From positions 467 through 64,466 of the forward strand of contig JAJTCK010000002.1 of assembly GCA_021323175.1 (NCBI GenBank): a stretch of 64,000 bases of DNA. The letters are read 5' to 3'. Shown here piece after piece: positions 9,605 through 53,051 of the stretch. Position numbers and translations under genes: made by a program. This stretch comes from Solirubrobacterales bacterium. GTDB lineage: Bacteria; Actinomycetota; Thermoleophilia; Solirubrobacterales; 70-9. The notes under the pieces are model-generated. The model made no database searches, was not told where the DNA came from, and was given only the letters and a program-made list of their open reading frames with translations. Numbering within the stretch: position 1 is the stretch's first letter; each line of letters starts with the position of its first letter.

Positions 9605-9606
9605 GG

Positions 9607-10488: not shown

Positions 10489-10498
10489 GCGGCTCAGG

Positions 10499-11980: not shown

Positions 11981-12033
11981 CTCCTCCTTCTTCCTTGCGG
12001 CTTCGGCTCTGGGCCGCCCCGACGGCCCCGGGA

Positions 12034-12714: not shown

Positions 12715-12778
12715 GGTCGCGAAGCCTAGTGCGAGAGCCCGATGTGGCTCGCCCCGCCGAATAGAGTCGCGGCCAGCG

Positions 12779-14194: not shown

Positions 14195-14202
14195 GGCGCG
14201 AC

Positions 14203-15504
14203 TCAGGCGGGAGCAGCGGCGAGGGACTCGTTGATAGGCGCCAGGGCGGCGCGGAAGCGGTCCTCGGAGGGAGCGATGGCCGCGGCGGCCAGCTGGTCGG
14301 GCGCGTAGAGCTCATCGGCCAGGGCAGCGACATCGTCGAGGGAGACGGCATCAACGCGGCCAATCATCTCGTCGAGCGTCAGCAGGTCGGTCCCGAACAG
14401 CACGGCTTTGCCGATGCGGGACATCCGGGCGGCGGTGGATTCCGACGAAAGCACGAGCCGCCCCTTGACGTGCTCCTTGGCGCGCGTGAGCTCTTCTTGG
14501 GTGATGCCCTCGGAGTGGATGGACGACAGCTCGGCGGCGATGACTTCGCACGCCTCCTCGATGTTGTCCTCGCGCGTCCCGACGTACAGGCCGATCAGAC
14601 CTCCGTCCGCGAACTGCTGCGTGTAGGACCCAACCGCGTACGCCAGACCCCGCTTCTCGCGGACCTCGCGAAAGAGCCGCGAGGAGGTGGACCCGCCGAA
14701 GACCGTGTCCAGGATCGCGAGGGCGTGGCGCCGGTCGTCCCCGCGCTGGATTCCCGGGCCGCCCAGGGTGACGTGGTACTGCTCGGTGTCCTTGCAGTGA
14801 AAGCCAACCCGGGCCTGCGGCTCGGGAGCGGCGCCGTCGCTGTGCTCTGCGCTCGGCGCGGGATCCCTGGACTCCACGTGCTGGCGGGTCAGCTCGACGA
14901 TCTCATCGTGGGACAGGTTGCCGGCGGCCGCCACGACGATGTTCGACGCCGTGTACCGTGCGCGGTGGTAGGCCTTGATGTCCGGAACCGGAATCGAGCT
15001 GATCACCTCGGCGGCGCCGAGGATGCGGCGTCCGAGCGGGTGCTCGCCGAAGATCGCCTCGTCGAGCACGTCGTGGACGCGGTCCGATGGCTCATCCTCG
15101 TACATGGCGATCTCCTCCAGGACGACCTCGCGCTCCGAGTCGATGTCGGGGTAGGTCGGTCCGAGGAGCATCTCGGCCAGCAGGTCGAAGGCCTGATCGG
15201 TGTGGGTGTCCAGGAGCCGGGCGTGCAGCTGGGTGGACTCCTTGCCGGTGGCGGCGTTCACCGAGGCGCCCATGCCGTCGAAGATCTCGGCGATCTCGAT
15301 TGCCGAGTGGCGCTCGGTGCCCTTGAAGAGCAGGTGTTCCAGGAAGTGCGAGACCCCGGCCTGAGCCGGGGTCTCGTCACGAGAACCTGTCCTCACCCAG
15401 AGCCCGAGGGCGACCGATCGCACCGACGGAACGGCCTCGGTGACAACTCGGATGCCCGAGCTCAGCTCGGTCACCTGGGCGCCCTGGGAGCCGGAGTCGC
15501 TCAA
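14203..15504 (-). CDS. M16-family zinc peptidase (PepR-like)
   Basis: ORF 14203..15504. Inverted zinc motif HFLEHLLFKGT. Start overlaps the pnp stop by 4 nt. The pnp-pepR pairing is typical of actinobacteria. Confidence 0.9.
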   Translation of the reverse strand: MSDSGSQGAQVTELSSGIRVVTEAVPSVRSVALGLWVRTGSRDETPAQAGVSHFLEHLLFKGTERHSAIEIAEIFDGMGASVNAATGKESTQLHARLLDTHTDQAFDLLAEMLLGPTYPDIDSEREVVLEEIAMYEDEPSDRVHDVLDEAIFGEHPLGRRILGAAEVISSIPVPDIKAYHRARYTASNIVVAAAGNLSHDEIVELTRQHVESRDPAPSAEHSDGAAPEPQARVGFHCKDTEQYHVTLGGPGIQRGDDRRHALAILDTVFGGSTSSRLFREVREKRGLAYAVGSYTQQFADGGLIGLYVGTREDNIEEACEVIAAELSSIHSEGITQEELTRAKEHVKGRLVLSSESTAARMSRIGKAVLFGTDLLTLDEMIGRVDAVSLDDVAALADELYAPDQLAAAAIAPSEDRFRAALAPINESLAAAPA

Positions 15505-17759: not shown

Positions 17760-17896
17760 CTCGTATGTACTCCTCCAGCCGCCCGGATGGCGGCTCTTTG
17801 CTTAAGAACTCTCGTTCTCTGTCCCGCGCGATGTTAGCGGCACTGCTGGCCTCCTTTTCCAACCTGCCTGCAATCTGCGCATGAAGCGCGACGTGC

Positions 17897-18391
17897 CTAT
17901 GTGGTCAACCCCCGCAGTCCCGCCTCGACCTCGCCCGGGAGCGGGGCGCCCTCAGCGAATGCGGCGGGCGTTCCTGCGACGCCGGCGCGGACGCCGCTGC
18001 GAAAGTCGCGCTGGACGCGCTCGGCGACCGCACCGGAGCGCCGGTCGGACTGGAAGCGGTCCAGGTCGAGCCCGAAGCGCTCGGCGCGCTCCCACAGGTG
18101 CGGGTCGTCCACCCTACCCCGCTCCGCGAACAGGGAGTCCGCCATCTCCCACAGGGCGCCCTGGCCCGCAGCGGCCTCTGCGGCTGCGTGCAGGGCCGGC
18201 GAGCGCGGGTGCTTGGAGGTCATCGGGAAGTGGCGGAAACACAGTTCCAGTGGCAGCTCGCGGATCCGCGGCCACACCGCGGCGCACGCCGGGCACGCGA
18301 GGTCGATGTAGACGATCGCCTCGGGGCCGCGCCCGGTGACGTGGTCGTCGGCCCGGAGCGGTGGGACCGCGGCGCTCGTCAGCTCATCCAT
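17897..18391 (-). CDS. DsbA-like thioredoxin-fold oxidoreductase
   Basis: ORF 17897..18460 trimmed to ATG 18391 (MDELTS). CPAC redox motif (IDLACPACA). Overlaps the upstream gene's stop by 8 nt. Confidence 0.75.
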   Translation of the reverse strand: MDELTSAAVPPLRADDHVTGRGPEAIVYIDLACPACAAVWPRIRELPLELCFRHFPMTSKHPRSPALHAAAEAAAGQGALWEMADSLFAERGRVDDPHLWERAERFGLDLDRFQSDRRSGAVAERVQRDFRSGVRAGVAGTPAAFAEGAPLPGEVEAGLRGLTT

Positions 18392-18776
18392 GCTCCACTC
18401 CGGCGGCGGCGAAAGCCTCCTCGGCGGAGTCGAACGGGCGGATCCGGACCAGCTTCCCATCCCTCATCTCCTGCACGTAGTGGATGACGCGGTCCACCTC
18501 GATTCCGCTGGCGCCGCCCCGTCCCCGGAACCGGACCCGTTCGATCAGCACGTCGTCGGAGTCGTGCAGGAGCTCCTCGCCCTCCAGTGTGAGCTCGTCC
18601 CAGGCACCCCTGAACGCGACCCACAGGTCCCTGACCTCGTCGTGGCCCAGGAACACCGTTTTCTCCGGGGGCAGATCCGGGAGGCGGAACGCGAGATGCC
18701 ACTCGACCTCCGGGTGGATCTCTGCGAGCCCGGCATCCAGGTCCCCCCGGCTGAAGGCCTCAAATCCGCGCCGCAT
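18384..18776 (-). CDS. SnoaL/NTF2-like fold protein
   Basis: ORF 18384..18776. MRRGFEAFSRGDLDAGLAEIHPEVEW is typical of ketosteroid-isomerase-like/SnoaL small proteins. Confidence 0.65.
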   Translation of the reverse strand: MRRGFEAFSRGDLDAGLAEIHPEVEWHLAFRLPDLPPEKTVFLGHDEVRDLWVAFRGAWDELTLEGEELLHDSDDVLIERVRFRGRGGASGIEVDRVIHYVQEMRDGKLVRIRPFDSAEEAFAAAGVEHG

Positions 18777-18823
18777 CGCCGCGGCGTTCGCGGAGATCCC
18801 CGCCTCACTCCCCCGTTCGGGGC

Positions 18824-19276
18824 TCAGGCGGCGAGGGCGTCGAATATCAGGTTCGCGCCCGGGATCTCCAGCGGTGTCGGGCTCGCGTGCGACCAGGCCA
18901 CGATACCCCGCTCATCCACCAGCACGAGCGAGCGGTTCCCGTGCCCGACCTTCTCGATCCAGGCGCCGTAGGCCCGCGACATCGCGCCCTTCGGATGGAA
19001 GTCGGACAGCAGGGGCATCGTCAGGTTCAGGCGCTCCCGGAAGGCCGCGTGGCAGTAGGGCGAGTCCACGCTGACGCCGACGAGGGTGGCGCCCCGCTGG
19101 TCCAGCTCGGCGAGCACCTCCTGGTAGAGGCTGAGCTGGTCGGTGCAGACCGGGCTGAAGTCCAAGGGGTAGAAGGCGATCACCAGCTTGCGGCCGGCGA
19201 AGTCGCCGAGCGATACGTCGCGCGCGTCCTGATCGGGAAGGGTGAAGGCCGGGGCCTGCGAGCCGGGCTCGATCAC
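18824..19276 (-). CDS. Peroxiredoxin (AhpC/TSA family)
   Basis: ORF 18824..19276. FYPLDFSPVCT peroxidatic-Cys motif. Confidence 0.88.
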   Translation of the reverse strand: MIEPGSQAPAFTLPDQDARDVSLGDFAGRKLVIAFYPLDFSPVCTDQLSLYQEVLAELDQRGATLVGVSVDSPYCHAAFRERLNLTMPLLSDFHPKGAMSRAYGAWIEKVGHGNRSLVLVDERGIVAWSHASPTPLEIPGANLIFDALAA

Positions 19277-19294
19277 GTGGCCCCCCCGCGTCGG

Positions 19295-19564
19295 CTAGCG
19301 GCGCAGGCCCAGCTCGGCGACCAGCGAGCGATAGCGCTCGAGGTCGCTGCTCTCGAGATAGCGGAGCAGCCGCCGGCGGCGCCCGACCATCTTCAGCAGC
19401 CCGACGCGCGAGTGGTGGTCCTTCGTGTGGGTGCGCAGGTGCTCGGTCAGGTCGTTGATCTGCTCGGTGAGCAGGGCGACCTGGACCTCGGCCGAGCCGG
19501 TGTCGCCGTCGTCACGCCCGTACTTGCCGATCAGCTCGGCTTTCCTGTCCTTGGGAAGGGGCAT
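19295..19564 (-). CDS. rpsO: 30S ribosomal protein S15
   Basis: ORF 19295..19564, 89 aa. [42 protein letters not shown]. Confidence 0.97.
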
Positions 19565-19628
19565 CTCGCTCGCGACAGGGTAGCGGCGCTCGCCGCGGAG
19601 CGGTGCGACGCGCCCTCTCCGTCGGCCG

Positions 19629-20549
19629 CTATGGCCGGTAGGTCGCGCAGATCGCGCGGGCGCGCTCGACGTCCTCTTTCATCGCCTCGATCAGCCGCTC
19701 GGCGCTGTCGAAGCGCCTCTCGCCGCGCAGGCGCTCCACGAAGGCGACTCGCAGGTTCTGGCCGTAGAGGTCGCCCCTGAAGTCGATCAGGTAGGACTCG
19801 ATCAGCAGGCCCCGACCCGTTTCGAAGGTCGGGCGGATCCCCACGTTCACCGCCGCCGGGTGACCGTTGGCGAATCCCACGTTCACCGCTGCCGGGTGAC
19901 CGTTGGCGAATGCGGCGTACACCCCGTGGCCCGGCACCACGAGCGCGTCGTCGGGGACGATGTTCGCGGTGGGGAAACCCAGCTCGCGACCGCGCTGGTC
20001 ACCGGTCACGACTTCGCTCTCCATCATGAACGGCGCGCCGAGGCAGCGCATGGCCTGCTCGACCTCGCCCGCGGCGACCAGGCCGCGCACCCGGGTCGAG
20101 GACACGGTCTCGCCGTCCACCTCCACCAGCGGGACGACCCGCGTCTCGAAACGCTCATCGGCGCGCAGCATCTCCACGTCCCCCTTTGCCTTCGCTCCGA
20201 ACCGGAAGTTCTCGCCCACGGAAACCCGCTTCGCTCCGAGCCGCTCCACAAGGACGGTCTCGACGAAGTCCTCCGCGCTGTGCTTCGAGAACTCCCGGTC
20301 GAAGGGGATCACCACGAGCTGCTCGACCCCGAGCCCGTCGATCACGTCTCGCTTCACCTCCGGGGTCATCAGGAGCTTCGGCGCCACCTCGGGATGGATC
20401 ACGGTCAGGGGGTGCGGGTCGAAGGTCAGCACCGTGTCGGCGTCGTCGATCACGGCCTGGTGGCCCAGGTGGACGCCGTCGAAGGTCCCGATCGCGACAT
20501 GGCGATCCCGCGGCTCGGCGTCGTGGAGTTGAGTGACCTTGATGCTCAT
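19629..20549 (-). CDS. ribF: Bifunctional riboflavin kinase / FMN adenylyltransferase
   Basis: ORF 19629..20804 trimmed to ATG 20549 ([31 protein letters not shown]). Contains an in-frame 12-aa tandem duplication (see repeat feature). Confidence 0.92.
19840..19911 (-). repeat. 36-bp x2 in-frame tandem duplication inside ribF ([12 protein letters not shown] x2)
   Basis: 19840..19875 and 19876..19911 are identical except for one C/T difference, which is a synonymous Ala codon. Confidence 0.9.
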
Positions 20550-42169: not shown

Positions 42170-43147
42170 CTACGCGGGCGAGCGTTGCTCAGCCCGGTCC
42201 TCCTTGGCTCCGCTCTCCACCAAACGGGGCACACCCCGCTCCGGAAAGGGAATCTCGACGAGGTCGAAATCCCGCACCGCATGGGACTCGGGGAAGGTCT
42301 CGCGAGCTTCGTCCAGGACGGCGCCGACGTGGTAGCGAGAGGAGATGTGGACGAGCGCCAGCATCTTCACCTTCGCCTCGACCGCGAGCTTTGCCGCCTG
42401 GCTCGCCGTCGTATGGCCGGTCTCGGCCGCGCGCGCGGACTCCTCGTCCGCGAAGGTTCCGTCATGGACCAGCAGCTGGGCTTCGTGTGCAGCGATCCGG
42501 GTCATCTCGCACGGCGCGGTGTCGCCGGTGAGCACGACCTTGCGGCCGGGCCGCGCCTCGCCGAGGACCTGGTCGGGGCGCACCTCTCCGTCAGCCCCCG
42601 GCACGGTCTCTCCGCGCTGTAGCCGCCCGAAGTCCTGGACGTCTTTGACGCCCAGCGATCTCGCCGCGTCGGTGTCGAACCGGCCCGGGCGCTCGGCCTC
42701 GACGAAGGCATAGCCGTTGGCCGGCATGAGGTGCTCGACCTCGAAGGCCTGCATCTCGAATCCCGCGTCGGTGTGGGCGAGGCTGTCGCCGGGTGCCAGC
42801 TCCACCAGCTCGACCTGGTAGCGAATCTTGCCGAAGACCCGGCGAAGGGCGTCGAAGAGGCCGCGCAGCCCGAGCGGCCCGGCGATCCGCAGCGGCGCCT
42901 GCCGGTCCAGGAGGTCATACGTCTTGAGCAGGCCGGGGAGCCCCAGGTAGTGGTCAGCATGCAGGTGGGTGATCAGGATCTCGTCGACCTGGACGAGCCC
43001 CGTCGAGTGCATCATCTGCCGCTGTGCCCCCTCTCCGCAGTCGATGAGCACCCGCTCGCCACCCGCGCGGATCAGCACGCAGGCCGTTGCGCGGCGCGCG
43101 GTGGGCACCGAGCCGCCGGTGCCGTAGAAGACGACCGAGAGGTCCAT
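42170..43147 (-). CDS. rnz: Ribonuclease Z (MBL fold)
   Basis: ORF 42170..43147. FYGTGGSVP..LIDCGEG..ITHLHADHYLGLPGLL. Confidence 0.88.
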   Translation of the reverse strand: MDLSVVFYGTGGSVPTARRATACVLIRAGGERVLIDCGEGAQRQMMHSTGLVQVDEILITHLHADHYLGLPGLLKTYDLLDRQAPLRIAGPLGLRGLFDALRRVFGKIRYQVELVELAPGDSLAHTDAGFEMQAFEVEHLMPANGYAFVEAERPGRFDTDAARSLGVKDVQDFGRLQRGETVPGADGEVRPDQVLGEARPGRKVVLTGDTAPCEMTRIAAHEAQLLVHDGTFADEESARAAETGHTTASQAAKLAVEAKVKMLALVHISSRYHVGAVLDEARETFPESHAVRDFDLVEIPFPERGVPRLVESGAKEDRAEQRSPA

Positions 43148-43254: not shown

Positions 43255-44670
43255 CTAGGTCCTCGTCGGCTGCCTGTCGGCCGGTGCTCCGCGCGCCCCG
43301 TTCGTGTGGGTCTCGTACTCGTCGGGGAGCTCCCAGAGGACATTGTCCAGGCCCTCGGCCTGGTGCTCGTCCGACACCCGCATCCCGAACGTCTTGTTGA
43401 AGATGAATCCCAGAACCGCCGCCGTGAGCATGCCTGCCCCGAAGCAGACCGCGATCCCGATCAGCTGCCACCAGAGCGTGATCTCGGCGTGCTGGAAGGC
43501 GTAGTCGCCCTCGGTGATGCCGAAGTAGCCGCCCTTGGCGGTCCCCCAATCGATCAGCCCGACCATGATCAGCCCATAGGTGCCGGCCGTGGCGAACACC
43601 GGGAGCAGCTTGTGATCGTCCACGTTCTTGCGGCCGAGGAACTCGTACACGGCGTACGAGAGGAACGGTGCGCCCGCGGAGACCAGGAACATCTGCCACG
43701 GCTCGTACACGTCCATCGCCGCCGCCCCCGCCACGTATCCGGCGAACGGGCCGAGCAGCAGGTAGCTGTACTTCCTGGTCCGGTAGGCGATGATCGCGCC
43801 GGTCAGCGCGCCGCCGGCCCACGAGAGGCCGTAGTTGTTGAACGCGATGCCGACGCTCGTGTCCGCCATCGTCACCGAGACGGCGAGCGCTTCGGGATCG
43901 AAGAAGAACAGGCACGACAGGATCACCATGGGCAGGCCCGCGAAGATCAGCAGCGCGCCTGTCGACAGAGTCCAGAGGTTGCCCGTGCGGTACTCGGCGA
44001 CCTTCGAATGCGCCTCGAACATGCCGGGTCGTTTGCCCAGCATGCGCACGAACACCAGTGCCATGCCAGCCGGGAACAGATAGACGAACCCGACTCCGAA
44101 GAAGTCGTGGAAGCCCTCGTTCGTGAGCGGTCCTACCGAGCCCCAGGTCAGGTAGCTCAGCAGCGAGGAAACGATCGTGGCCACGAAGCAGGTGATGAAG
44201 TAGGCCGAGGCCTTCATCCGCTCCGAGACCGCGAAGTGCAGCAGGATGTTCACGATTCCCGCGAACACCGCCAGGAAGAAGATGAAGATCTGGAAGTTGT
44301 TCAGGCCCGGGAAGACATCCGGTGACACGTTCTGTGCCAGGTCGTTGGCCAGCGTGCCGCCGAGCCACCAGTCTTCGATCGACTGGCCGAGCGGGTTCGC
44401 GACCTCGAAGGCATCGTTGTACTGCCAGTTCCAGAGCGCGAAGCCGATCCCGAAGTAGGTGGCGAACCCGATGAAGAAGCCGACGAGCTTCTCGATCGTG
44501 GAGTTGAACACGTTGAGACGTCTCACGCTGGCCGCGTCCAGCATCACGAGTCCGACCACGACCATCAGCGCTCCCACGGTTCCTGACGCATAGACGAGGT
44601 TCTGCGTCAGCATGTTCGTGGTCACCTGCTCGGGGAAGATCTCCCCGGCTTGGGCAAGCAAGTTCAGCAT
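43255..44670 (-). CDS. Divergent Amt/MEP/Rh-fold transporter lacking the twin-His pore motif
   Basis: ORF 43255..44670. Amt-like N-terminal LVMLDAASVRRLNVFNST (compare PG.A.FY.G.VR.KNV.N) and C-terminal EGLD motifs. By-eye alignment to E. coli AmtB puts Tyr at His168, Ala/Thr at His318, and no GWFGFN motif. GGAGAGG RBS. Confidence 0.7.
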   Translation of the reverse strand: MLNLLAQAGEIFPEQVTTNMLTQNLVYASGTVGALMVVVGLVMLDAASVRRLNVFNSTIEKLVGFFIGFATYFGIGFALWNWQYNDAFEVANPLGQSIEDWWLGGTLANDLAQNVSPDVFPGLNNFQIFIFFLAVFAGIVNILLHFAVSERMKASAYFITCFVATIVSSLLSYLTWGSVGPLTNEGFHDFFGVGFVYLFPAGMALVFVRMLGKRPGMFEAHSKVAEYRTGNLWTLSTGALLIFAGLPMVILSCLFFFDPEALAVSVTMADTSVGIAFNNYGLSWAGGALTGAIIAYRTRKYSYLLLGPFAGYVAGAAAMDVYEPWQMFLVSAGAPFLSYAVYEFLGRKNVDDHKLLPVFATAGTYGLIMVGLIDWGTAKGGYFGITEGDYAFQHAEITLWWQLIGIAVCFGAGMLTAAVLGFIFNKTFGMRVSDEHQAEGLDNVLWELPDEYETHTNGARGAPADRQPTRT

Positions 44671-44910
44671 GACCTCTCCTTTCGGATGGGCGTCCGGACT
44701 ACCGGCCGGTTGCCCACACGTGTCTCCCTCTGTTCCGAATTCGGGCTCTCACCCGTGAGGCGCGCTGGTTATACCCATTCGTTCAGCCGGAAGTCAAGTC
44801 GGAAATGCCACTATCTTCGAAAGGAAGGGAGTGCGACCTTTACTTCCGACCCAGGGTCAGGCAGAATCGATTTTTGTACAGATTTGTCCAGGAGGAGGGA
44901 GCGAGGCCGT

Positions 44911-46314
44911 ATGACCGAGAAGATGTGGGGGTCCGAGCCGTTCTGGGGGCTCGACTACGACTGGGATCCGGATTGGGTCCTGACCGACCGTCAGAAGGAG
45001 CTCCGCGAGACCCTGATCGGGCTCTGCGAGACCGAGATGCGGGCCAACGCGAAGCGCTCGGACGACGAGCTGCTCTACCCGCGCCGCAACTTCGAGCTCC
45101 TCGCCGAGAACGGCTTCCTCAGCCTGACCGTGCCCGAGGAGTACGGCGGCCTGGGCCAGAACCACGTCGGCTTCGCGATGGTCTGCGAGACGCTCGCCCG
45201 CTACGGCTGCGCCTCGACCGCGATGTGTTACGTGATGCACATCGGCGCGGTCGCGACGATCATGCTCCGCCCCACCGACGCGCTGGTCGACAAGTACATC
45301 CGCCCCCTCAACGAGGAGGTGCGAATCGGGACCCTCTCCTACTCGGATCCCGAGACCGGCTCACACTTCTGGTACCCCGTCAGCTCGAACGCCCAGAAGT
45401 CCAACGGCGGCTACAAGGTCAACAAGAAGGCGAGCTGGACGACCTCCGGCGGTTTCGCCGACTTCTACGTGGTGCAGACGACCAGCCCCGACTTCAGCGG
45501 ATACGACGACCTGTCCGTCTTCGTCATCGACGGCGACGACGTGCAGGCCCAGCCCTCGCTGTGGGACGCCCTCGGCTTGCGCGGCAACCAGTCCGGCCCG
45601 ATCCAGGTCGAGGACATCGAGATCCCCGACGACCAGGTCGTTGGCCCGCTCGGGGACGGCGCCAACTCCAACGACGAGGCGGTCGACCCCTGGTTCCTGG
45701 TGGGCTCGTCCTCGGTCTGGAACGGCATCACGCTCGGGGCGATCGACATCGCCAAGCGGCACACGACGCGCAAGAAGCACGTGGACGTCGGCATGCGGGT
45801 CGCGGACTACCCCACCATCCAGGACTACGTCGGCGAGGCAGTCATGGACACGAACGCCTGCCGGGTGTTCGTGTACTCGGTCGCACAGGCGATGGACAAG
45901 GCGACCGACGACAACACCAGGGTCCTGAAGCCGGGCGAGACCGCCCGCGCCGACTATCTCCACTGGGCGTGGCAGATCAAGTTCGAGGCGGCCAAGAACA
46001 CCGCACACCACGTGGACAAGATGCTGCACGCATGCGGCGGGTCCGGGTACAAGAAGGACATGGAGCTGGAGCGCTACGTGCGCGACGCGAAAGCCGGATG
46101 GGTGATGGGGCCGACCAACGAGGTGCTGCGCCAGTTCGTCGGCAAGGCGGTCCTGAACGGGTTCGATTCGCTCGACTACTGGAACCAGACCTACAACCGC
46201 CGCGTCGTGGAGAACGAGGTCAAGAAGCTCGACTCGACCGCCAAGCGAGAGCTGGCCGAGCAGCTCGTCGAGCAAGCTGACAAGGCCGAGGGCACCGAGC
46301 CGGCGAAGGCCTAG
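44911..46314 (+). CDS. Acyl-CoA dehydrogenase-fold flavoprotein (possible two-component flavin-dependent oxygenase)
   Basis: ORF 44650..46314 trimmed to ATG 44911 (MTEKMWGSEP). ACAD-like segments FLSLTVPEEYGGLG, KKASWTTSGG, GGSGY..RYVRDAK. The MCAD Y-E-G-T catalytic-Glu position reads M-G-P-T. About 40-aa charged C-terminal tail. Confidence 0.8.
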   Translation: MTEKMWGSEPFWGLDYDWDPDWVLTDRQKELRETLIGLCETEMRANAKRSDDELLYPRRNFELLAENGFLSLTVPEEYGGLGQNHVGFAMVCETLARYGCASTAMCYVMHIGAVATIMLRPTDALVDKYIRPLNEEVRIGTLSYSDPETGSHFWYPVSSNAQKSNGGYKVNKKASWTTSGGFADFYVVQTTSPDFSGYDDLSVFVIDGDDVQAQPSLWDALGLRGNQSGPIQVEDIEIPDDQVVGPLGDGANSNDEAVDPWFLVGSSSVWNGITLGAIDIAKRHTTRKKHVDVGMRVADYPTIQDYVGEAVMDTNACRVFVYSVAQAMDKATDDNTRVLKPGETARADYLHWAWQIKFEAAKNTAHHVDKMLHACGGSGYKKDMELERYVRDAKAGWVMGPTNEVLRQFVGKAVLNGFDSLDYWNQTYNRRVVENEVKKLDSTAKRELAEQLVEQADKAEGTEPAKA

Positions 46315-46318
46315 GACC

Positions 46319-48652
46319 ATGGCCGCCGCAACGCGCCCCGTCGTGATCGGCAATGGCCTGTTGCCGATCGACCGCTCGCTGGAGTCGCACTGGGTCCGCC
46401 CCGGTGCGGCTACCGCGGTGCGGCTGCGGCCTGACGACCTGCTCACGGTGTTGAACCGGGACGGCGGACAGATCGCCGAGCTCACCGTCCTCGACGCCGA
46501 GGGCGGCGAGGACGCCGCCGCGATCGGCGCCCGGGCCGACGGCGACGCGACGGTCCTCCGTGGGCTCTCGGGCAACGGGGGCGCCGAAGGGTTCCTTGGC
46601 CAGCTCCACACGAGCGGGCTGATCCCCGATGAGGCCAAGGCGCTGCGGCTGTTCGCCGCGGATACCCCTCGGGGCGCCACCGAGACATTCACGGTCGAGC
46701 GCGAGGCGACCGCGATCGTCGCCGCGCCGGGAGGCCGGGTGGTGGAAGGCGACTGGCCGGCATCGCCGCTGATGGTCGAGGTCAAGCGCGCGACGCCGCG
46801 TGCGTTCGACGAGGTCGAGCTGCCGCCGCCGCTGGCCGAGCCGCGGCTGGACTTCCGCGTCGACAAGGCGAGCGCACTCGCCTACGAGGTGCAGGCAGGC
46901 GAGTACATCCAGATCATCGACGTCCGGGGCAAGCAGTGCTCGGACTTCCTCGCGTTCAACCAGAGCAAGCTCGAGCGCGGCATCGAGCGCGGCCTGGACT
47001 CGACCACGACTCGCTCCCTGATGGGCTCGGCCTACCCGACCCCCGGCCTGTATCGCAAGAGCTTCGACATCGACCAGGACCCGCTGGTGGAGGTGGTCCA
47101 CGACACCGTCGGCCGCCACGACAACTTCGGGCTCGCCTGCTTCGCCAAGTACTACGAGGACCTGGGCTACCCGGGGCACGTCAACTGCAGCGACAACTTC
47201 AACGGGGAGCTGGTCCCGCGGGGGGTCGAGGCGCGGGCCGGATGGAACGCGCTCAACCTCTTCTACAACACCACCTTCGACACGGCCAACGCTCTGATCG
47301 CCGACGAACCGTGGTCACGGCCCGGCGACTACGTGCTGATGCGCGCTTCGAACCACCTGCTCTGCGCCTCATCCGCATGCCCCGACGACATCGACCCCGC
47401 CAACGGCTGGGAGATCACAGACATCCACGTCCGCGTGTACCGGCCCGAGAACCGGTTCTCGCTGGCGATCGCCCATCGCGTCACACCGGAGGCCGACCCC
47501 GTCATGACCAAAGAGACCGCCTTCCACGCCCGCACCTCCGCCCTGACGGGCGACATGGTCGAGTACCGGGGCTACTGGCTGCCCGACTGCTTCCCCGGCG
47601 AAGGGTCAATCGGCGAGTACTGGGCGTGTCGCGAGAAGGCGGTAATCATGGACCTCTCCCCGCTCCGCAAGTGGGAGGTCCTGGGCCCCGATGCGGAGAT
47701 GCTGATCCAGCGCGCGATCACACGCGACGCTCGCAAGCTGTCCGTGGGCCAGGTCACCTACACCGCGGTGTGCAACGAGACCGGCGGGATGCTCGACGAC
47801 GCCACCGTCTATCGCCTCGGCGACGACAACTTCCGCTTCGTGGCCGGGGACGAGTACACCGGCGTGCACCTGAACAAGCTCGCTGACACCGAGGGGCTGA
47901 AGGTCTTCGTGAAGCCCTCGACCGAGCAGCTTCACAACGTCGCCGTCCAGGGGCCCGAGAGCCGCGAGATCCTGAAGAAGATCGTGTGGACCCCGCCCGA
48001 CCAGCCGGCCCTCGAGGACCTGAAGTGGTTCCGCCTCCTGATCGGGCGGATCGGCGACTACGACGGCACGCCGATCGTCGTCTCGCGGACCGGCTACACC
48101 GGCGAGCTGGGATACGAGGTGTGGTGCCATCCCGACGACGGCCCCGCCGTCTGGGACGCGATCTGGAAGGCCGGCGAGGGACACGGGCTGCAGCCGCTCG
48201 GGCTGTCGGCGCTCGACATGCTCCGGATCGAATCCGGCCTGATCTTCGCGGGCTACGAGTTCGACGACCAGGTGGACCCGTTCGAGGCCGGGATCGGCTT
48301 TGCCGTGGCCCTGGACTCGGAGGACGACTTCGTCGGCAAGCAGGCTCTGATCGAGCGCTCCGAGCACCCCCAGCGCAGGCTGGTCGGCCTGGAGCTCGAG
48401 GGCCGGGAGACCGCTGGCCACGGCGACTGCGTGCACGTGCCCGGCGAGCGCGCCTCGGTCGGCGTCGTCACCAGCGGCACGCGCAGCCCGGTCCTGCGCA
48501 AGAACATCGCGCTCTGCCGGATGGCCGTCCAGCACACCGAGACCGGCACAGCGATCGAGGTCGGCAAGCTCGATGGGGAGCAGAAGCGAATTCCGGCGCA
48601 GGTCGTCCCGATCCCCTTCTATGACCCGAAGAAGGAGCGTCCGCGGTCATAG
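46319..48652 (+). CDS. DUF1989-like N-terminal region fused to a GcvT-type aminomethyltransferase/THF-binding domain (TMAO-demethylase-like architecture)
   Basis: ORF 46319..48652, 777 aa. The central region carries Cys residues (GLAC, HVNC, LLCASSAC). The C-terminal half has GcvT-like motifs (MDLSPLRKWEVLGPDA, SRTGYTGELGYEV, LDMLRIESGL). Start is 4 nt after the ACAD-fold stop. Confidence 0.8.
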   Translation: MAAATRPVVIGNGLLPIDRSLESHWVRPGAATAVRLRPDDLLTVLNRDGGQIAELTVLDAEGGEDAAAIGARADGDATVLRGLSGNGGAEGFLGQLHTSGLIPDEAKALRLFAADTPRGATETFTVEREATAIVAAPGGRVVEGDWPASPLMVEVKRATPRAFDEVELPPPLAEPRLDFRVDKASALAYEVQAGEYIQIIDVRGKQCSDFLAFNQSKLERGIERGLDSTTTRSLMGSAYPTPGLYRKSFDIDQDPLVEVVHDTVGRHDNFGLACFAKYYEDLGYPGHVNCSDNFNGELVPRGVEARAGWNALNLFYNTTFDTANALIADEPWSRPGDYVLMRASNHLLCASSACPDDIDPANGWEITDIHVRVYRPENRFSLAIAHRVTPEADPVMTKETAFHARTSALTGDMVEYRGYWLPDCFPGEGSIGEYWACREKAVIMDLSPLRKWEVLGPDAEMLIQRAITRDARKLSVGQVTYTAVCNETGGMLDDATVYRLGDDNFRFVAGDEYTGVHLNKLADTEGLKVFVKPSTEQLHNVAVQGPESREILKKIVWTPPDQPALEDLKWFRLLIGRIGDYDGTPIVVSRTGYTGELGYEVWCHPDDGPAVWDAIWKAGEGHGLQPLGLSALDMLRIESGLIFAGYEFDDQVDPFEAGIGFAVALDSEDDFVGKQALIERSEHPQRRLVGLELEGRETAGHGDCVHVPGERASVGVVTSGTRSPVLRKNIALCRMAVQHTETGTAIEVGKLDGEQKRIPAQVVPIPFYDPKKERPRS

Positions 48653-48658
48653 GCTTTC

Positions 48659-48726
48659 GGCCGTGAAGGTCAAGCGATTCACGGTCCTGCCGGGTCATGA
48701 CCCGGAGTTGCTCGGGCCGGGCCCGG
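48659..48726. terminator. Cluster of three GC-rich palindromes between convergent genes (putative bidirectional terminators)
   Basis: CCGTGAA-n10-TTCACGG (48661..48684), CGGGTCATGACCCG (48691..48704) and CCGGGCCCGG (48717..48726). Confidence 0.35.
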
Positions 48727-48733
48727 TCGCGCT

Positions 48734-49357
48734 CTAGGTCAACTCGGCGCCGGAGGCGAGGCCTCCGTACTGGCCGCCGTGGAACAGCAGGGGCTGGGCG
48801 TTCCCCTCGTAGCACGCATCCTCGACCCGCCCCAGGAAGAGGGAGTGATCGCCTCCCCAGTAGGACTTGGCGACCTTGCTGACGAACTGGGCGGCCGAAC
48901 CGGCGACTACCGGGGTCTCGTGGACGATTTCGAAACTGGGTTCGTCGCGGCCGTCCCCTGGCCTGCCGGCGAACTGGTCCGAGAGATCGCGCTGCCCGGC
49001 GGCGAGCACTGAGACGCCGAAGCGCTGTCCCTCGTAGAGCAGCGAGCACATCTTGGTGCGGCGGTCCACCGAGATCAGGACCAGCGGAGGCTCCAGGCTG
49101 ACGGACATGAAGGCGTTCGCGGTCATCCCGTGGACCTGGTCACCGACCTTCGTCGTGATCACTGTGACACCGGTGGCGAACATCCCGAGCGTCTGGCGCA
49201 GCGCCTTGGCGGGATCGTCGCCCTCGATCTCGAGGGCCGCCTCGTCGGATGGATCGGGCGGTCCCTGACCGATCCCGTCAGGACCCGTCCCGACCCAGGC
49301 CGCGACCTCGGCCAGCTTCAGGTCGAACTCGGGCGGCTGGGCGTCAGGCTCGGTCAC
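48734..49357 (-). CDS. HpaC-like NAD(P)H-flavin reductase (split-barrel flavin reductase domain)
   Basis: ORF 48734..49534. FATGVTVITT..HGMTANAFMSVSLEPPLVLISV..GDHSLFLGRV. The ORF's 5' end is the antisense of the tRNA gene, so the start was moved to GTG 49357 (GTG 49390 is an alternative). Confidence 0.82.
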   Translation of the reverse strand: MTEPDAQPPEFDLKLAEVAAWVGTGPDGIGQGPPDPSDEAALEIEGDDPAKALRQTLGMFATGVTVITTKVGDQVHGMTANAFMSVSLEPPLVLISVDRRTKMCSLLYEGQRFGVSVLAAGQRDLSDQFAGRPGDGRDEPSFEIVHETPVVAGSAAQFVSKVAKSYWGGDHSLFLGRVEDACYEGNAQPLLFHGGQYGGLASGAELT

Positions 49358-49431: not shown

Positions 49432-49505
49432 GCGCCCGTAGCTCAGCTGGATAGAGCGCCGCCCTCCGGAGGCGGAGGCCACAGGTTCGAATCCTGTCGG
49501 GCGCG
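49432..49505 (+). tRNA. tRNA-Arg (anticodon CCG)
   Basis: Hand-folded cloverleaf: acceptor GCGCCCG/CGGGCGC, D-arm GCTC-AGCTGGATA-GAGC, anticodon stem CCGCC/GGCGG with loop CTCCGGA, T-arm ACAGG-TTCGAAT-CCTGT. 74 nt, with no encoded CCA. Confidence 0.93.
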
Positions 49506-49535
49506 CTGCGCCGCGTCGGCCTGGCGGAGCGCACC

Positions 49536-51612: not shown

Positions 51613-52845
51613 CTATGCGACGACCTCGGCCGCGAACTCCCTCTCGAAGTCCGCGAGCGTCGGGTCGATCTCGTGCATGCGGAACGATTCGCGTGCGGCG
51701 TCGAGCGTCTTCAGCCCCTCGCCCGTGATGTAGACGACGACTCGCTCGTCGCTGTCGATGTCACCGCGCCGCGCGAGCTTCTCCAGCACCCCCATCGTGA
51801 CCCCGCCTGCGGTCTCGGTGAAGATGCCGGTCGTCTCGGCGAGCAGGCGGATCCCCGCCGTGATCTCGTCGTCGGTGACGGATTCGATCGAGCCGCCGGT
51901 GCTGCGCGCGAGATCCAGTGCGTATGGACCGTCGGCGGGATCGCCGATCGCCAGGCTCTTCGCGATCGTGTCCGGCCGCTGCGGCTTGCAGACGCTCGTG
52001 CCGTCGGCGAAGGCCGTCGCGACCGGCGAGCAGCCCTCGGCCTGAGCCCCGCAAAACGTCGGCAGCTCACCCTCGACCAGGCCCAACTCCAGCCATTCGG
52101 TGATCCCGCGTCCAAGCTTGGTGAACATGGACCCCGAAGCGATCGGCCCGACTATCCGGTCGGGGATCTGCCAGCCGAGCTGCTCGATCGTCTCGTAGGC
52201 GAGGGTCTTGGAGCCCTCTGCGTAGTACGGGCGCAGGTTCACGTTGACGAACGCCCACGGCCGCTCGGCCGACAGCTCCGTGCAGAGCCTGTTGACGTCG
52301 TCGTAGTTGCCCCGGATCCCGACCAGGTTCGTCCCGTAGATCCCGGTCGCAAGCAGCTTCTGCTCCTCGAGGTCCGCGGGCACGAAGACGTAGGACGACA
52401 GGCCGGCGGCAGCGGCGTGCGCGGCCACGGCGTTCGCCAGGTTCCCGGTGGACGCGCAGGCGACCGTTTCGAACCCGAGCTCTTTGGCCTTGGCGACGGC
52501 GACGGCGACGACGCGGTCCTTGAACGAATGGGTCGGGTTCGCCGCGTCGTTCTTGATCCAGACCTCGCCCATTCCCAGCCGCTCGGCCAAGCGGTCTGCG
52601 CGAACCAGCGGGGTCAGCCCGGGCTCGAGCGGATCGCCGGGCCGCTCCCCCTCGAACGGGAGGAAGTCCGAGTACCGCCAGATACCGCGAGAGCCGGCTT
52701 GGATCTTGCGCTTGGCCTCCTCGGCGTCCATGCCCGAGTTGTCGTACGCGACCTCCAGCGGGCCGAAGCAGGTCTCGCAGAAGAAAGCGGCCCCGAGCTC
52801 GTAGCCCGCTCCGCACTCCTTGCAGTTGAGGGATCTGACAGCCAC
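51613..52845 (-). CDS. Threonine-synthase-family PLP enzyme with N-terminal zinc ribbon (candidate homocysteine synthase of MetM type)
   Basis: ORF 51613..53001 trimmed to GTG 52845, 9 nt after an AAGGAG RBS, because the upstream part is the riboswitch. CKECG..CETC ribbon and PLP-lysine motif NPTHSFKDRV. Confidence 0.85.
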   Translation of the reverse strand: MAVRSLNCKECGAGYELGAAFFCETCFGPLEVAYDNSGMDAEEAKRKIQAGSRGIWRYSDFLPFEGERPGDPLEPGLTPLVRADRLAERLGMGEVWIKNDAANPTHSFKDRVVAVAVAKAKELGFETVACASTGNLANAVAAHAAAAGLSSYVFVPADLEEQKLLATGIYGTNLVGIRGNYDDVNRLCTELSAERPWAFVNVNLRPYYAEGSKTLAYETIEQLGWQIPDRIVGPIASGSMFTKLGRGITEWLELGLVEGELPTFCGAQAEGCSPVATAFADGTSVCKPQRPDTIAKSLAIGDPADGPYALDLARSTGGSIESVTDDEITAGIRLLAETTGIFTETAGGVTMGVLEKLARRGDIDSDERVVVYITGEGLKTLDAARESFRMHEIDPTLADFEREFAAEVVA

Positions 52846-52865
52846 TCGAAGAATCTCCTTGGAAC

Positions 52866-53032
52866 GAAAAAACCTCCGCCTGGTCAGTGGGCGGAGGTTC
52901 CGGGAGGAAACTCTTCCCACATCTCCCAGGCCTGATGCGACGCCTGCTGGATTTGGCACCTCTCCTCGAACCGAAGTTCGAGGTGGTTGCCGGGGCTTCA
53001 TCGGGCCAGTCCCTCCACCCCTCTTGATGTGG
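52866..53032 (-). promoter_or_regulatory. SAM-I (S-box) riboswitch with intrinsic terminator expression platform
   Basis: Minus strand: CCACAUCAAGAGGGGUGGAGGGACUGGCCCGAUGAAGCCCCGGCAACC..GGUGCCAAAUCCAGCAG..GGGAGAUGUGG. The aptamer spans 52917..53032 with P1 CCACAUC/GAUGUGG. It is followed by AACCUCCGCC-CACUGACCA-GGCGGAGGUU plus a U5 run (52866..52899). Confidence 0.93.
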
Positions 53033-53051
53033 TGCAGCTATGTGGCGCGGG

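Follow-up and report, generated by a model that had tools for sequence, protein, structure and literature searches.

Three adjacent genes, for an ACAD-fold flavoprotein, a TMAO demethylase (Tdm) and a flavin reductase, look like a previously undescribed route of trimethylamine (TMA) consumption in abundant soil and freshwater actinobacteria; no prior description of this module was found in the literature. The genes lie in a stretch of 64,000 nt from a Solirubrobacterales bacterium, which was analyzed as a whole (the window; Table 1). The conversion of TMA to TMAO is normally catalyzed by an FMO-type monooxygenase, Tmm. Here, this enzyme seems to be replaced, upstream of a genuine Tdm, by a proposed ACAD-fold oxygenase together with a dedicated flavin reductase. 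We lean toward the explanation that this two-component monooxygenase N-oxygenates imported TMA and that Tdm then demethylates the TMAO.

Table 1 Features of the locus (positions refer to the window)
Feature	Positions	Strand	Length (aa)	Remarks
RNase Z (rnz)	42170-43147			TIGR02651 score 298.9 vs cut-off 292.95
Amt-like channel	43255-44670	-	471	Pfam Ammonium_transp, E = 6e-35
Divergent intergenic region, Amt-like/ACAD	44671-44910	.		Lower G+C
Putative operator-like repeat TGTACAGATTTGTCCA	44875-44890	+		Consensus TGTACA-N4-TGTAC[AG]
ACAD-fold flavoprotein	44911-46314	+	467	All three ACAD Pfam domains (N, M, C)
Tdm	46319-48652	+	777	DUF1989 + GCV_T + GCV_T_C; NF053776
Convergent spacer, Tdm/reductase	48653-48733	.		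Inverted repeats
HpaC/StyB-type NAD(P)H:flavin reductase	48734-49357	-	207	Pfam Flavin_Reduct, E = 1.7e-35
tRNA-Arg(CCG)	49432-49506

An earlier, sequence-only reading had described four genes between rnz and tRNA-Arg. The four open reading frames and both flanking genes were recovered at those positions with the architecture described, including the start of the DUF1989-GcvT fusion 4 nt past the ACAD stop codon and the convergent orientation of the HpaC-like reductase. For the latter, GTG at 49357 is the sensible start because a longer ORF to 49534 would overlap the tRNA gene. [quoted passage not shown] There is also no candidate enzyme in the window for the step from dimethylamine (DMA) to methylamine; in the preferred explanation, DMA must be handled elsewhere. 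The impression of an accessory module could not be established. The GC dip is modest (lowest value 0.634, at 44-46 kb), and the order rnz ... ACAD-Tdm-reductase ... epimerase-ThrC is common to the window and the Solirubrobacterales MAGs L001-L003.

The conserved unit is three genes, not four. A check of the entire module for co-occurrence had been suggested, with a lack of co-conservation of the four genes as a refutation. ACAD, Tdm and reductase are co-conserved in two divergent clades, whereas co-conservation of all four genes fails on the Amt-like gene. The slot upstream of the ACAD gene is occupied by an APC permease in 52 of 71 loci and by the Amt-like gene in 5; the latter can be exchanged and lies outside the conserved core of the module. 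Of 70 Thermoleophilia loci, 68 have Tdm as the next gene after ACAD. A flavin reductase homologue is likewise encoded in 68, no more than 4 kb away in 61 loci and, in 38, immediately behind Tdm with the same orientation. The second clade (60-66% identical) keeps Tdm and the reductase near the ACAD gene, in shuffled orders and orientations. The Tdm-linked ACAD clades are jointly monophyletic in an NJ tree, and the linkage of the three genes is tight and ancient. N-methylglutamate-pathway and serine-cycle genes often adjoin the trio, and genes of the GS-III/GmaS-like, MgsABC-like, DAO, FchA, SGAT-like, malyl-CoA-lyase-like and SHMT types are neighbors in many loci. No FMO-type Tmm turned up in the related loci, of which about 2.2 Mb were searched.

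Judged from its sequence, gene 3 is a true Tdm orthologue and should encode a genuine TMAO demethylase; the previous label of a Tdm architecture fits the domain layout but was too weak. The protein scores 1142.4 on the NF053776 equivalog model, just above the cut-off of 1100, and matches Paracoccus TDM (PDB 9q59) end to end with 879 bits. Residues D220, F327 and D367 of the Paracoccus active site, with roles as given in PMC13619132, align with D209, Y316 and D356.

In the ACAD-fold protein, the position of the MCAD-type catalytic Glu is Gly400, in line with the earlier claim that this residue is missing. The IVD-type position is Trp261, and both known catalytic glutamates are thus lost. The AF2 model (pLDDT = 90.8) superimposes on genuine ACADs with a TM of about 0.9, nearer than to known ACAD-fold oxygenases, and the sequence profile gives 154 bits to genuine ACADs vs 65-75 bits to nitrososynthases/TdsC. 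The best NCBIfam match is the Rv1679/FadE16 family (225 bits vs a cut-off of 600). As genuine ACADs are closer than any known ACAD-fold oxygenase, the assignment as an oxygenase rests on context, not homology. The family forms a discrete clade with 83-95% identity across Thermoleophilia and has its own N- and C-terminal extensions. In pairwise alignments, the ACAD FAD-binding motifs appear largely kept, as does the second ACAD signature motif. Many flavin-as-substrate oxygenases differ in the former respect, and both the closeness to genuine ACADs and the retained FAD-binding motifs were counted against our preferred explanation.

The closeness to genuine ACADs in sequence and structure and the apparently intact second signature motif would suit an FAD-bound dehydrogenase, oxidase or reductase. 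Its reaction could be the oxidation of a C-N bond in an amine through hydride transfer, the reduction of a substrate for which the flavin reductase provides the electrons, or the turnover of a CoA thioester that has no connection with Tdm. We regard such a function as highly improbable, since the catalytic base is absent at both known positions, no ETF genes occur in any of the 160 loci, no conserved CoA-metabolism genes were found near the ACAD-fold gene across the loci surveyed and an NAD(P)H:flavin reductase is associated with it, even by gene fusion. The lost glutamates and the absence of ETF from the 160 loci argue against a dehydrogenase. The need for electron input follows from the reductase linkage, from a 4-nt overlap of the ACAD gene with a Flavin_Reduct gene in a sister clade and from fusions to Fre-like FAD_binding_6 and NAD_binding_1 domains in two relatives (P0125 and P0149). 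We therefore propose the ACAD-fold protein as the oxygenase component that N-oxygenates TMA to TMAO and the reductase, with HpaC_Thermus, StyB, FerA and HsaB as its best NCBIfam matches (all under cut-off), as its supplier of reduced flavin.

The nearest sister ACAD clades are paired with a Cupin_7 protein in place of Tdm, and polyamine-type transporters and spermidine-synthesis genes are nearby. This pairing bears on the ancestral chemistry of the family and was likewise counted against the preferred explanation. Clade-specific ACAD substitutions cluster in residues 105-106 and 262-270, which we take to be helices E and G by analogy with ACAD structures; these helices line the ACAD substrate pocket. 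Together with the narrow margin of Tdm over its cut-off and the Tyr at Paracoccus F327, the sister clades and the presumed pocket substitutions would be consistent with another tertiary amine or N-oxide as substrate, or with an auxiliary role of ACAD and reductase, TMA not being the physiological substrate. Longer N,N-dimethylalkylamines and choline- or carnitine-derived amines are candidate substrates, and detoxification of N-methylhydroxylamine or another side product is a candidate auxiliary role. We consider this improbable because the context is C1 metabolism throughout (N-methylglutamate pathway, SHMT, FchA, serine-cycle genes, dmmDABC), an authentic TMA dehydrogenase accompanies the linked transporters and the Tdm of one related locus, L144, scores 1284 on the Tdm model.

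In L144, a single locus among 160, the order is dmmD / ACAD-reductase-tdm-permease-dmmA-dmmB-dmmC, and ACAD and reductase stand where tmm would be expected in a cluster that otherwise has the canonical tdm-permease-dmmDABC content. As Tdm and Dmm are both encoded, the sole step of the known pathway without an enzyme is that from TMA to TMAO. The dependence of this decisive argument on 1 of 160 loci counts against the best explanation. The suggested methylated-amine route, with an ACAD-fold stand-in for Tmm before a THF-coupled Tdm, is thus partly supported: by co-conservation, C1 context, the L144 slot and the link of the altered Amt family to TMA and DMA genes in other genomes, but not for the Amt-like gene as a member of the core.

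In the preferred mechanism, the HpaC-type reductase would reduce free flavin with NAD(P)H, and the ACAD-fold protein would take the reduced flavin, form a C4a-hydroperoxyflavin with O2 and oxygenate the TMA nitrogen. Tdm, presumably translationally coupled to the ACAD gene, would convert TMAO to DMA and formaldehyde, as its orthology suggests, and its GcvT domain would capture the formaldehyde as methylene-THF. For the downstream steps, many relatives encode the N-methylglutamate pathway and serine cycle alongside, and one encodes DmmDABC. The ACAD-fold two-component Dms1-3 convert DMS to DMSO and DMSO2 (PMC13352529), and this oxygenation of a small methylated heteroatom is a chemical precedent for that of TMA.

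ACAD and reductase may instead act after Tdm as a DMA oxidizer replacing DmmDABC, or iteratively, N-oxygenating both TMA and DMA. Dmm genes are missing from 159 of 160 related loci, and the methylamine (N-methylglutamate) pathway is next door in 29 of 52 fully flanked Thermoleophilia loci, so that an activity from DMA to methylamine is needed; no conserved oxidoreductase for it besides the trio is evident in loci other than L144. With a methylamine pathway adjoining and no DMA enzyme, it would be more economical if ACAD and reductase handled DMA, and the enzyme count would fit a TMAO-importing organism exactly and without a gap. In the iterative version, Tdm would demethylate both TMAO and N,N-dimethylhydroxylamine, and three proteins would suffice from TMA via DMA to methylamine. 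We judge a role in DMA oxidation possible but unlikely. L144 has dmmDABC with ACAD, reductase and Tdm in one apparent operon, which argues against redundancy with Dmm, and in other contexts the Amt-like importers have TMA dehydrogenase as a genomic neighbor. Moreover, the reaction of flavin hydroperoxide with secondary amines is N-hydroxylation, not demethylation. Methylocella mutants without dmm genes reportedly retain Tmm and Tdm. These mutants no longer grow on DMA (PMC5520151). Hence, Tmm and Tdm seem not to substitute for Dmm in Methylocella.

The Amt-like protein scores 139 bits on TIGR00836 (cut-off 343) and has no PDB sequence match (phmmer), and its AF2 model has a TM of 0.82-0.85 to Amt1, AmtB and Amt-1. 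The remodeled pore that had been claimed is real: H168 to Tyr, H318 to Phe, F215 to Val/Ile and W212 to Leu are (near-)invariant in 120 family members, which retain F107, W148 and D160. Methylophaga, Methylophilaceae, Woeseia and Gaiellaceae have relatives with 63-69% identity. In each of the five other contexts that were sampled, the neighbors of the Amt-like gene are an authentic trimethylamine dehydrogenase (1574 bits to PDB 1djn), TMADH-like and ETF genes, dmmDABC or gmaS/mgsABC-like genes. The protein is probably an importer of TMA or other methylated amines, for which a wider hydrophobic pore without the twin-His would be better suited than for ammonium; in most relatives, uptake would fall to the APC permease. 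If the amine and not the N-oxide is imported, Tdm is fed only if some enzyme makes TMAO. Sensor-type Sd-Amt1 and 6eu6 are among the best structural matches, the residues for external recruitment, W148 and D160, are kept along with one Phe of the gate and the end product of the pathway is ammonium, all of which would suit an exporter or scavenger of catabolic NH4+, or a sensor. These functions are clearly unlikely, as the twin-His used by Amt/Mep/Rh for ammonium conduction is missing, a Pfam search found no fused signaling domain, loci such as L081 of Methylophaga, L047 and L172 have a canonical amt besides the Amt-like gene (plus glnK in L081) and the gene alternates with the APC permease upstream of ACAD.

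The divergent intergenic region presumably holds the promoters of both the Amt-like and the ACAD genes; it has no match to the sigma-70 consensus or an Rfam family. The operator-like repeat ends 20 nt ahead of the ACAD start codon and occurs once in the window (0.09 matches expected by chance). When up to 3 mismatches are allowed, 58 of 80 sequences (79 of the related loci and the window) have it 32-57 nt before the ACAD start, compared with matches in only about 1% of random 120-nt windows. Inverted repeats lie in the spacer between Tdm and reductase, one with a 7-bp stem (48661-48684) and one forming a 16-bp palindrome (48690-48705). The spacer is likely a bidirectional terminator region, in which no T-tract terminator was called.

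The closest known system is Tmm-Tdm-DmmDABC with TmoP/TmoXWV of Methylocella silvestris, Ruegeria pomeroyi, Paracoccus and SAR11. Its Tdm is orthologous, the principle of N-oxygenation before a THF-coupled demethylation is common, a permease is clustered with the catabolic genes in both and relatives of the window share downstream GmaS/MgsABC-like genes, with dmmDABC in L144. Here, however, FMO-type Tmm seems to be replaced by a non-homologous ACAD-fold protein with a separate flavin reductase, uptake would be by an Amt-fold channel or APC permease instead of the TmoXWV ABC transporter and DmmDABC is nearly always missing.

Group D ACAD-fold flavin monooxygenases comprise Dms1-3 and MsuC (methyl-sulfur oxygenation), DszC/TdsC, the nitrososynthases ORF36/KijD3/DnmZ and isobutylamine N-hydroxylase. 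The window protein resembles them in its ACAD fold, in lacking the catalytic Glu, in having its own NAD(P)H:flavin reductase partner and in its proposed chemistry, the oxygenation of small substrates at a heteroatom (N or S), whereas in sequence and fold it groups with genuine ACADs and the uncharacterized Rv1679/FadE16 family. No report of a tertiary-amine N-oxide as product of ACAD-fold enzymes was found in the literature.

With AmtB/Amt/Mep/Rh, the Amt-like protein has the eleven-helix fold and the F107, W148 and D160 equivalents in common. It differs in both pore histidines, the inner gate Phe and W212, falls far under the NCBIfam amt cut-offs, and its gene is not paired with glnK and has its genomic links to enzymes of TMA/DMA catabolism, not to nitrogen-regulation genes. 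The Paracoccus TMAO demethylase (PDB 9q59/9q5a; eLife 2026, PMC13619132) shares the three-domain layout and the D220 and D367 equivalents with the window Tdm, and several Cys/His-containing segments around the catalytic core, which may include Zn ligands, are conserved in the alignment. The two differ at F327, which is Tyr in the window, and in the genomic partner, which is ACAD and reductase here instead of Tmm.

The ORF map gives exactly the four genes of the sequence-only reading, and the flanking genes are also as claimed there, namely RNase Z and tRNA-Arg(CCG) (see table). The longest ORF of the flavin reductase would cross the tRNA gene, and the GTG at 49357 is therefore a reasonable start. 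The G+C content dips to 63% near the divergent promoter region and is otherwise unremarkable. Neither a riboswitch nor a sigma-70 promoter was found within the module. The convergent stop codons of gene 3 and the reductase gene flank a perfect palindrome of 16 bp, CCGGGTCATGACCCGG, which is adjoined by a 7-bp stem-loop; the palindrome is a putative terminator or protein-binding site. Outside the module, a SAM riboswitch (RF00162, 87 bits) is located directly 5' of a gene for a ThrC-family PLP enzyme (TIGR00260, 280 bits). The mechanical ORF of this gene (51613-53001) overlaps the riboswitch, and hence its real start should be further downstream. Control by SAM suggests that the enzyme is a ThrC paralogue of the methionine pathway (MetM-like) and not a threonine synthase.

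Coordinates of the features in the window and in related loci (L numbers)
Stretch	Feature	Position	Strand	Remark
Window	RNase Z	42170-43147		flank; score above its TIGRFAM cut-off
Window	Amt-family gene	43255-44670	-	
Window	TGTACA-N4-TGTAC[AG] repeat	44875-44890		only copy in the window
Window	ACAD-fold gene	44911-46314	+	
Window	DUF1989-GcvT fusion (Tdm)	46319-48652	+	start 4 nt past the ACAD stop codon
Window	7-bp stem-loop	48661-48684		
Window	16-bp palindrome	48690-48705		
Window	Flavin_Reduct gene	48734-49357	-	convergent with Tdm
Window	tRNA-Arg(CCG)	49432-49506		flank
Window	ThrC-family PLP enzyme	51613-~52900	-	
Window	SAM riboswitch	52916-53033	-	
L144	DmmD-like GcvT	6476-7714	-	
L144	ACAD	8001-9392	+	
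L144	Flavin_Reduct	9491-10033	+	
L144	Tdm	10034-12337	+	1284 bits on the Tdm model
L144	APC permease	12521-14257	+	
L144	DmmA	14251-14856	+	
L144	DmmB	14865-15809	+	
L144	DmmC	15842-16888	+	
L001	truncated APC permease	8794-9270		importer slot
L002	frameshifted Amt-like gene	8056-9592		importer slot
L016	BVMO/FMO-class flavoprotein	18106-19705		
L035	BVMO/FMO-class flavoprotein	16673-18128		
L081 (Methylophaga)	Cupin_3/EutQ-like gene	9254-9595		just upstream of Amt-like gene
L083 (Methylophilaceae)	region of Cupin_3/EutQ-like gene and 49-aa ORF	8941-10007		just upstream of Amt-like gene
L085	ACAD coupled to Cupin_7	10001-12483		
L086	ACAD coupled to Cupin_7	10001-11841		
L088	ACAD coupled to Cupin_7	8971-10787		

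Gene 3 is predicted from its sequence to be a real demethylase (Tdm) of trimethylamine N-oxide (TMAO). Its architecture is complete, with an N-terminal region, the DUF1989 catalytic core and a GcvT domain for THF binding with the C-terminal barrel (Pfam: DUF1989 at residues 181-347, GCV_T at 403-662, GCV_T_C at 686-769). The protein scores 1142.4 on NF053776, the NCBI equivalog model for TMAO demethylase, against a cut-off of 1100, and the cryo-EM structure of Paracoccus TDM (PDB 9q59) matches with 879 bits over residues 20-777. Near the Zn site of the Paracoccus enzyme, D220, F327 and D367 make contacts to substrate and product (PMC13619132). Both aspartates are conserved in the window protein (D209 and D356), and F327 is replaced by Y316, which is a conservative change. 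The predicted reaction, held with good confidence, is the conversion of TMAO to dimethylamine (DMA) and formaldehyde, the latter channelled to THF. The equivalog score and the full-length alignment with Paracoccus TDM would thus fix one reaction of the module.

To follow the conservation of the genes, we scanned one genome per GTDB species with the ACAD-fold protein, which gave 576 matching stretches. The best 80 of these are 83-95% identical, and all belong to soil and lake MAGs of Thermoleophilia (Solirubrobacterales, Thermoleophilaceae, and Gaiellales). Among the loci of these 80 with enough DNA, Tdm is located directly downstream of the ACAD gene on the same strand in 68 of 70, and a Flavin_Reduct homologue is also present in 68 of 70. 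The reductase gene is at most 4 kb away in 61 loci of the best 80, and in 38 it follows Tdm directly on the same strand, as a three-gene operon. The trio in the window keeps the rnz ... epimerase-ThrC position found in the Solirubrobacterales MAGs L001-L003. Two further small conserved proteins without a Pfam match are encoded between an APC permease gene and the ACAD gene in loci L004-L070 and are absent from the window: c4 (~150 aa, by look zinc-ribbon-like with two transmembrane helices; tblastn match in 43 of 52 fully flanked loci) and c7 (~162 aa; 35 of 52).

A second Tdm-linked clade (clade B, related to protein P0123) was recovered in 263 metagenome loci; its ACAD-fold protein is 60-66% identical to that of the window, and Tdm is 55-67% identical. 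Tdm and a flavin reductase are nearby in several orders and orientations, for example reductase-ACAD ... SHMT-Tdm, ACAD-Tdm-reductase, or ACAD with a convergent Tdm and then the reductase; Tdm is present in 15 of the 21 clade B loci that are flanked by 3 kb or more on each side. Both Tdm-linked ACAD clades are jointly monophyletic in a neighbour-joining tree. Chance adjacency of the trio is ruled out by the near-constant arrangement in the first clade and the shuffled order in the second. Because the linkage persists through rearrangement at such divergence, there is strong evidence that the ACAD-fold protein, Tdm, and the reductase work together.

The Amt-like gene does not share this conservation, and the expected co-conservation of all four genes fails at this point: it precedes the ACAD gene in no more than 5 of 71 loci, with a further, frameshifted copy in L002, and an APC permease gene takes this place in 52 of 71. 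The Amt-like gene is outside the conserved core and is an exchangeable, putative importer. The methylated-amine route with an ACAD-fold oxygenase, as originally proposed, keeps its core, given the conserved trio and the locus L144 described below, but its boundaries have to be redrawn to three genes and an exchangeable importer. Among the closest relatives, L001 has a truncated APC permease gene in the importer slot, and in L003 the slot is empty. These defects and the frameshift in L002, also a closest relative, could be assembly indels of the MAGs or real decay; whichever the cause, within the module it is the importer that is labile.

Of 80 sequences (79 related loci and the window), 58 carry a repeat of the form TGTACA-N4-TGTAC[AG] on the upstream side of the ACAD gene, 32-57 nt from its start. 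Among random windows, only about 1% match. We regard the repeat as a putative operator.

The surroundings of the trio point to the metabolism of methylated amines. In the Thermoleophilaceae loci, the trio is inside a gene set resembling a methylotrophy island: a type-III glutamine-synthetase-like gene (GmaS candidate), GATase, GXGXG, and Glu_synthase genes (MgsABC-like set), DAO-family oxidoreductases, the methenyl-THF cyclohydrolase FchA, a class-V aminotransferase with a malyl-CoA-lyase-like gene, a phosphoribulokinase with a LysR regulator, and a PhyH-family dioxygenase. Of 52 fully flanked loci, 29 have N-methylglutamate-pathway genes at most 10 kb away from the trio, and clade B loci add SHMT. 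None of the island genes, including the N-methylglutamate pathway, was found within the 64-kb window. The most informative locus, L144, is the only one of the 160 related loci with dmmDABC. It has the same set as the tmm-tdm-permease-dmmDABC clusters of Methylocella and Paracoccus, but with ACAD and reductase genes in the place of tmm, the gene for the FMO-type trimethylamine (TMA) monooxygenase. L144 covers the steps from TMAO to DMA and from DMA to methylamine, and therefore the step from TMA to TMAO is the sole one without an enzyme. We consider it very probable that the module serves methylated-amine catabolism.

As the sequence-only reading had stated, the window has no FMO-type tmm: an ORF with the FxGxxxHxxx[YF] fingerprint was not found. 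FMO-type Tmm was also missing from ~2.2 Mb of related loci. ORFs with an FMO fingerprint in L016, L023, and L035 (Thermoleophilaceae), the only class-B enzymes in the related loci, were rejected as Tmm since they are BVMO-like and score 68 versus 675 on NF058570. These BVMO/FMO-class flavoproteins carry FxGxxxHxxxW and are encoded 7-8 kb from the trio. In clade B, a recurrent block is located upstream of reductase-ACAD (L114, L116, L117, L160, L161, and L162), consisting of genes for a membrane FA_desaturase-like di-iron protein, a HAL/PAL-like protein of the aromatic-amino-acid-lyase family, and a cold-shock protein. We know of no role for this block in methylamine metabolism. For the step from DMA to methylamine outside L144, no enzyme stands out, and the candidates are the PhyH and DAO enzymes, the FA_desaturase-like enzyme of clade B, or ACAD and Tdm acting twice.

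The ACAD-fold protein matches the Pfam ACAD N, M, and C domains, and its AF2 model (pLDDT 90.8) aligns with SCAD, IVD, and bacterial ACADs at a Foldseek TMt of ~0.9. The active site argues against a genuine acyl-CoA dehydrogenase. The position of the MCAD-type catalytic Glu (Y-E-G-T) is G400, within V-M-G-P-T-N-E-V, in agreement with the initial observation that this residue is lacking, and the position of the IVD-type helix-G Glu is W261. The motif G/A-P-[ST]-N-E-V is present in every ACAD-family relative examined. ACAD signature 1 (...E-x2-G-[ST]-D...) is not matched, as the sequence reads S-D-P-E-T-G-S-H and ends with G-S-H instead of G-S-D. The window and 160 related loci contain no ETF homologue, a result that covers the gene neighbourhood. 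With both catalytic Glu gone, ETF and CoA genes not conserved nearby, and a reductase always linked, a genuine acyl-CoA dehydrogenase was rejected as the primary reading; the protein is predicted not to be a working dehydrogenase of a known kind.

Assignment to a known N-oxygenase by homology was not supported, as profile and fold searches put genuine ACADs first (154 bits, versus 50-75 bits for the characterised group D relatives DszC, HpaB-like C2, nitrososynthases, and MsuC/SfnB). Its nearest relatives in sequence and fold are true ACADs and not the known oxygenases, for which the closest scores are 65-75 bits. Hence, if it is an oxygenase, it would be an independent lineage within the ACAD fold. 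The best NCBIfam family is Rv1679/FadE16, at 225 against a cut-off of 600, and a full-text literature search found no functional data on this family. When 1.84 billion cluster representatives were searched all-against-all with HMMER, a discrete family emerged, with full-length relatives at 62%, 45%, 43%, 41%, and 36% identity, below which generic ACADs follow at ~35%.

The reductase gene, a candidate for the HpaC/StyB-type short-chain flavin reductases, has a Pfam Flavin_Reduct match (E = 1.7e-35), and all NCBIfam equivalogs are below cut-off (best HpaC_Thermus, 127.7 versus 200). In L085, an alphaproteobacterial locus of a sister clade, the ACAD and Flavin_Reduct genes overlap by 4 nt. Two ACAD-family proteins, P0125 (770 aa) and P0149 (882 aa), are C-terminally fused to FAD_binding_6 and NAD_binding_1 domains, which is the architecture of Fre/LuxG flavin reductases and is also cytochrome-b5-reductase-like. 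Both sequences look low-GC and may be of eukaryotic origin. No genomic locus of P0125 was confirmed in the metagenome scan, none was recovered for P0149 either, and no record was found for the genomic context of the Methyloligella homologue P0495. The linked reductase, the overlap in L085, and the fusions thus indicate an oxygenase that needs reduced flavin.

The closest ACAD sister clades (43-60% identical; Alphaproteobacteria, Gaiellales, and unknown) pair with Cupin_7 and AraC regulators and not with Tdm. Cupin_7 is translationally coupled to the ACAD gene in L085, L086, and L088, and in P0391 both are fused. An AraC regulator is often present and a Flavin_Reduct gene sometimes; polyamine-type ABC transporters, spermidine-synthesis genes, or a DMGDH-like gene are near. 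These loci are an uncharacterised two- or three-component system. Fifteen positions distinguish Tdm-linked from cupin-linked clades and cluster at residues 105-106, 142, 158, 221-223, and 262-270. By analogy with ACAD structures, these segments may line the acyl pocket, which would be consistent with a substrate switch.

The Amt-like protein belongs to the Amt fold and family (PF00909, E = 6e-35; AF2 model with TM 0.82-0.85 to Sd-Amt1, AmtB, and Af-Amt-1), and its TIGR00836 score is 139 versus a cut-off of 343. It is so divergent that phmmer found no PDB sequence. For the pore, the alignment of 120 family members included E. coli AmtB, whose sequence was checked at seven literature positions, and canonical Amt proteins encoded in the same loci. 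The twin-His residues H168 and H318 are replaced by invariant Tyr and Phe, respectively, and F215 of the gate by Val (115) or Ile (5), so that the remodelled pore noticed initially holds for 120 of 120 members. W212 is replaced by an invariant Leu, F107 and D160 are kept throughout, and W148 is kept in 118 of 120.

A role in ammonium release or sensing is a less probable reading of this protein. No P-II gene is beside it in the window, and the canonical glnK-amt pairs of L081 and of the loci with clusters c15/c19 are distinct from the Amt-like gene. All five gene contexts examined elsewhere support the prediction of a methylated-amine channel. The Amt-like gene is beside dmmDABC in Methylophaga, which has a separate glnK-amt pair; in a Methylophilaceae bacterium it immediately precedes the genes for an APC permease, an authentic trimethylamine dehydrogenase (1574 bits to PDB 1djn/2tmd), and ETF; it is beside TMADH-like and ETF genes in Woeseia and in a Gaiellaceae-like contig, and after amt-GS-mgsABC in L172. 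If the amine rather than TMAO is imported, Tdm needs an N-oxygenase, as in our main reading. The APC permease cluster c2 is 29% identical to the Methylophilaceae APC and not orthologous to it; the clade B permease d10 appears much closer by eye, as judged from one shared motif stretch. Small Cupin_3/EutQ-like genes precede the Amt-like gene in L081 and L083, and in L083 a 49-aa ORF overlaps its start. In the Woeseia locus L170, four Lyase_aromatic genes follow it.

We propose that the ACAD-fold oxygenase and the reductase would perform the conversion of TMA to TMAO ahead of Tdm, and we slightly favour the view that the pair is specifically a TMA N-oxygenase. Nitrososynthases and isobutylamine N-hydroxylase N-oxygenate amines. 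The chemistry also has a precedent in the ACAD-fold two-component enzymes Dms1-3, which oxygenate small methylated sulfur compounds (DMS to DMSO to DMSO2; PMC13352529). A more far-reaching possibility, which we regard as improbable, is that the ACAD oxygenase acts on TMA and then on DMA and is self-sufficient with the reductase and Tdm from TMA to methylamine, with the twin-His-less Amt clade as the first dedicated channel for tertiary and secondary methylamines. Tdm would then rearrange and cleave both N-oxygenated products, without Tmm or DmmDABC. If this were true, the organisms with clade B genes and a whole guild of Thermoleophilia in soil and freshwater would escape tmm/dmm surveys of methylated-amine turnover.

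Methylated amines rank among the major sources of carbon and nitrogen and give rise to climate-active gases and aerosols, and estimates of TMA oxidisers rely on the marker genes tmm, tdm, dmm, and gmaS. Surveys based on tmm would undercount these organisms if the Tmm step can be carried out by an unrelated two-component enzyme, as we propose. Tertiary-amine N-oxygenation would also join ACAD-fold chemistry, and the large, uncharacterised Rv1679/FadE16-like family would gain a first functional handle. A new catalyst from TMA to TMAO would be of interest for biocatalysis and biosensing. The twin-His-less Amt clade beside the classical trimethylamine dehydrogenase of Methylophilus-type bacteria is a natural experiment on Amt substrate selectivity. 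A full-text literature search gave no prior description in which an ACAD-like protein is linked to tdm or a twin-His-less Amt serves as a channel for methylamine.

Compared with known systems, the ACAD-fold protein resembles group D two-component flavin monooxygenases in combining an ACAD fold without the dehydrogenase base with an NAD(P)H:flavin reductase partner, but its sequence relationship to characterised members is low. It has no FMO domains, and its proposed likeness to Tmm is a functional analogy and not membership. The Amt-like family shares the fold, the Pfam family, and F107 with Amt/Mep/Rh ammonium channels but differs in lacking the twin-His pore and F215 of the double Phe gate. 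The module is best seen as a known pathway in a variant form that uses a non-orthologous enzyme together with a new Amt subfamily.
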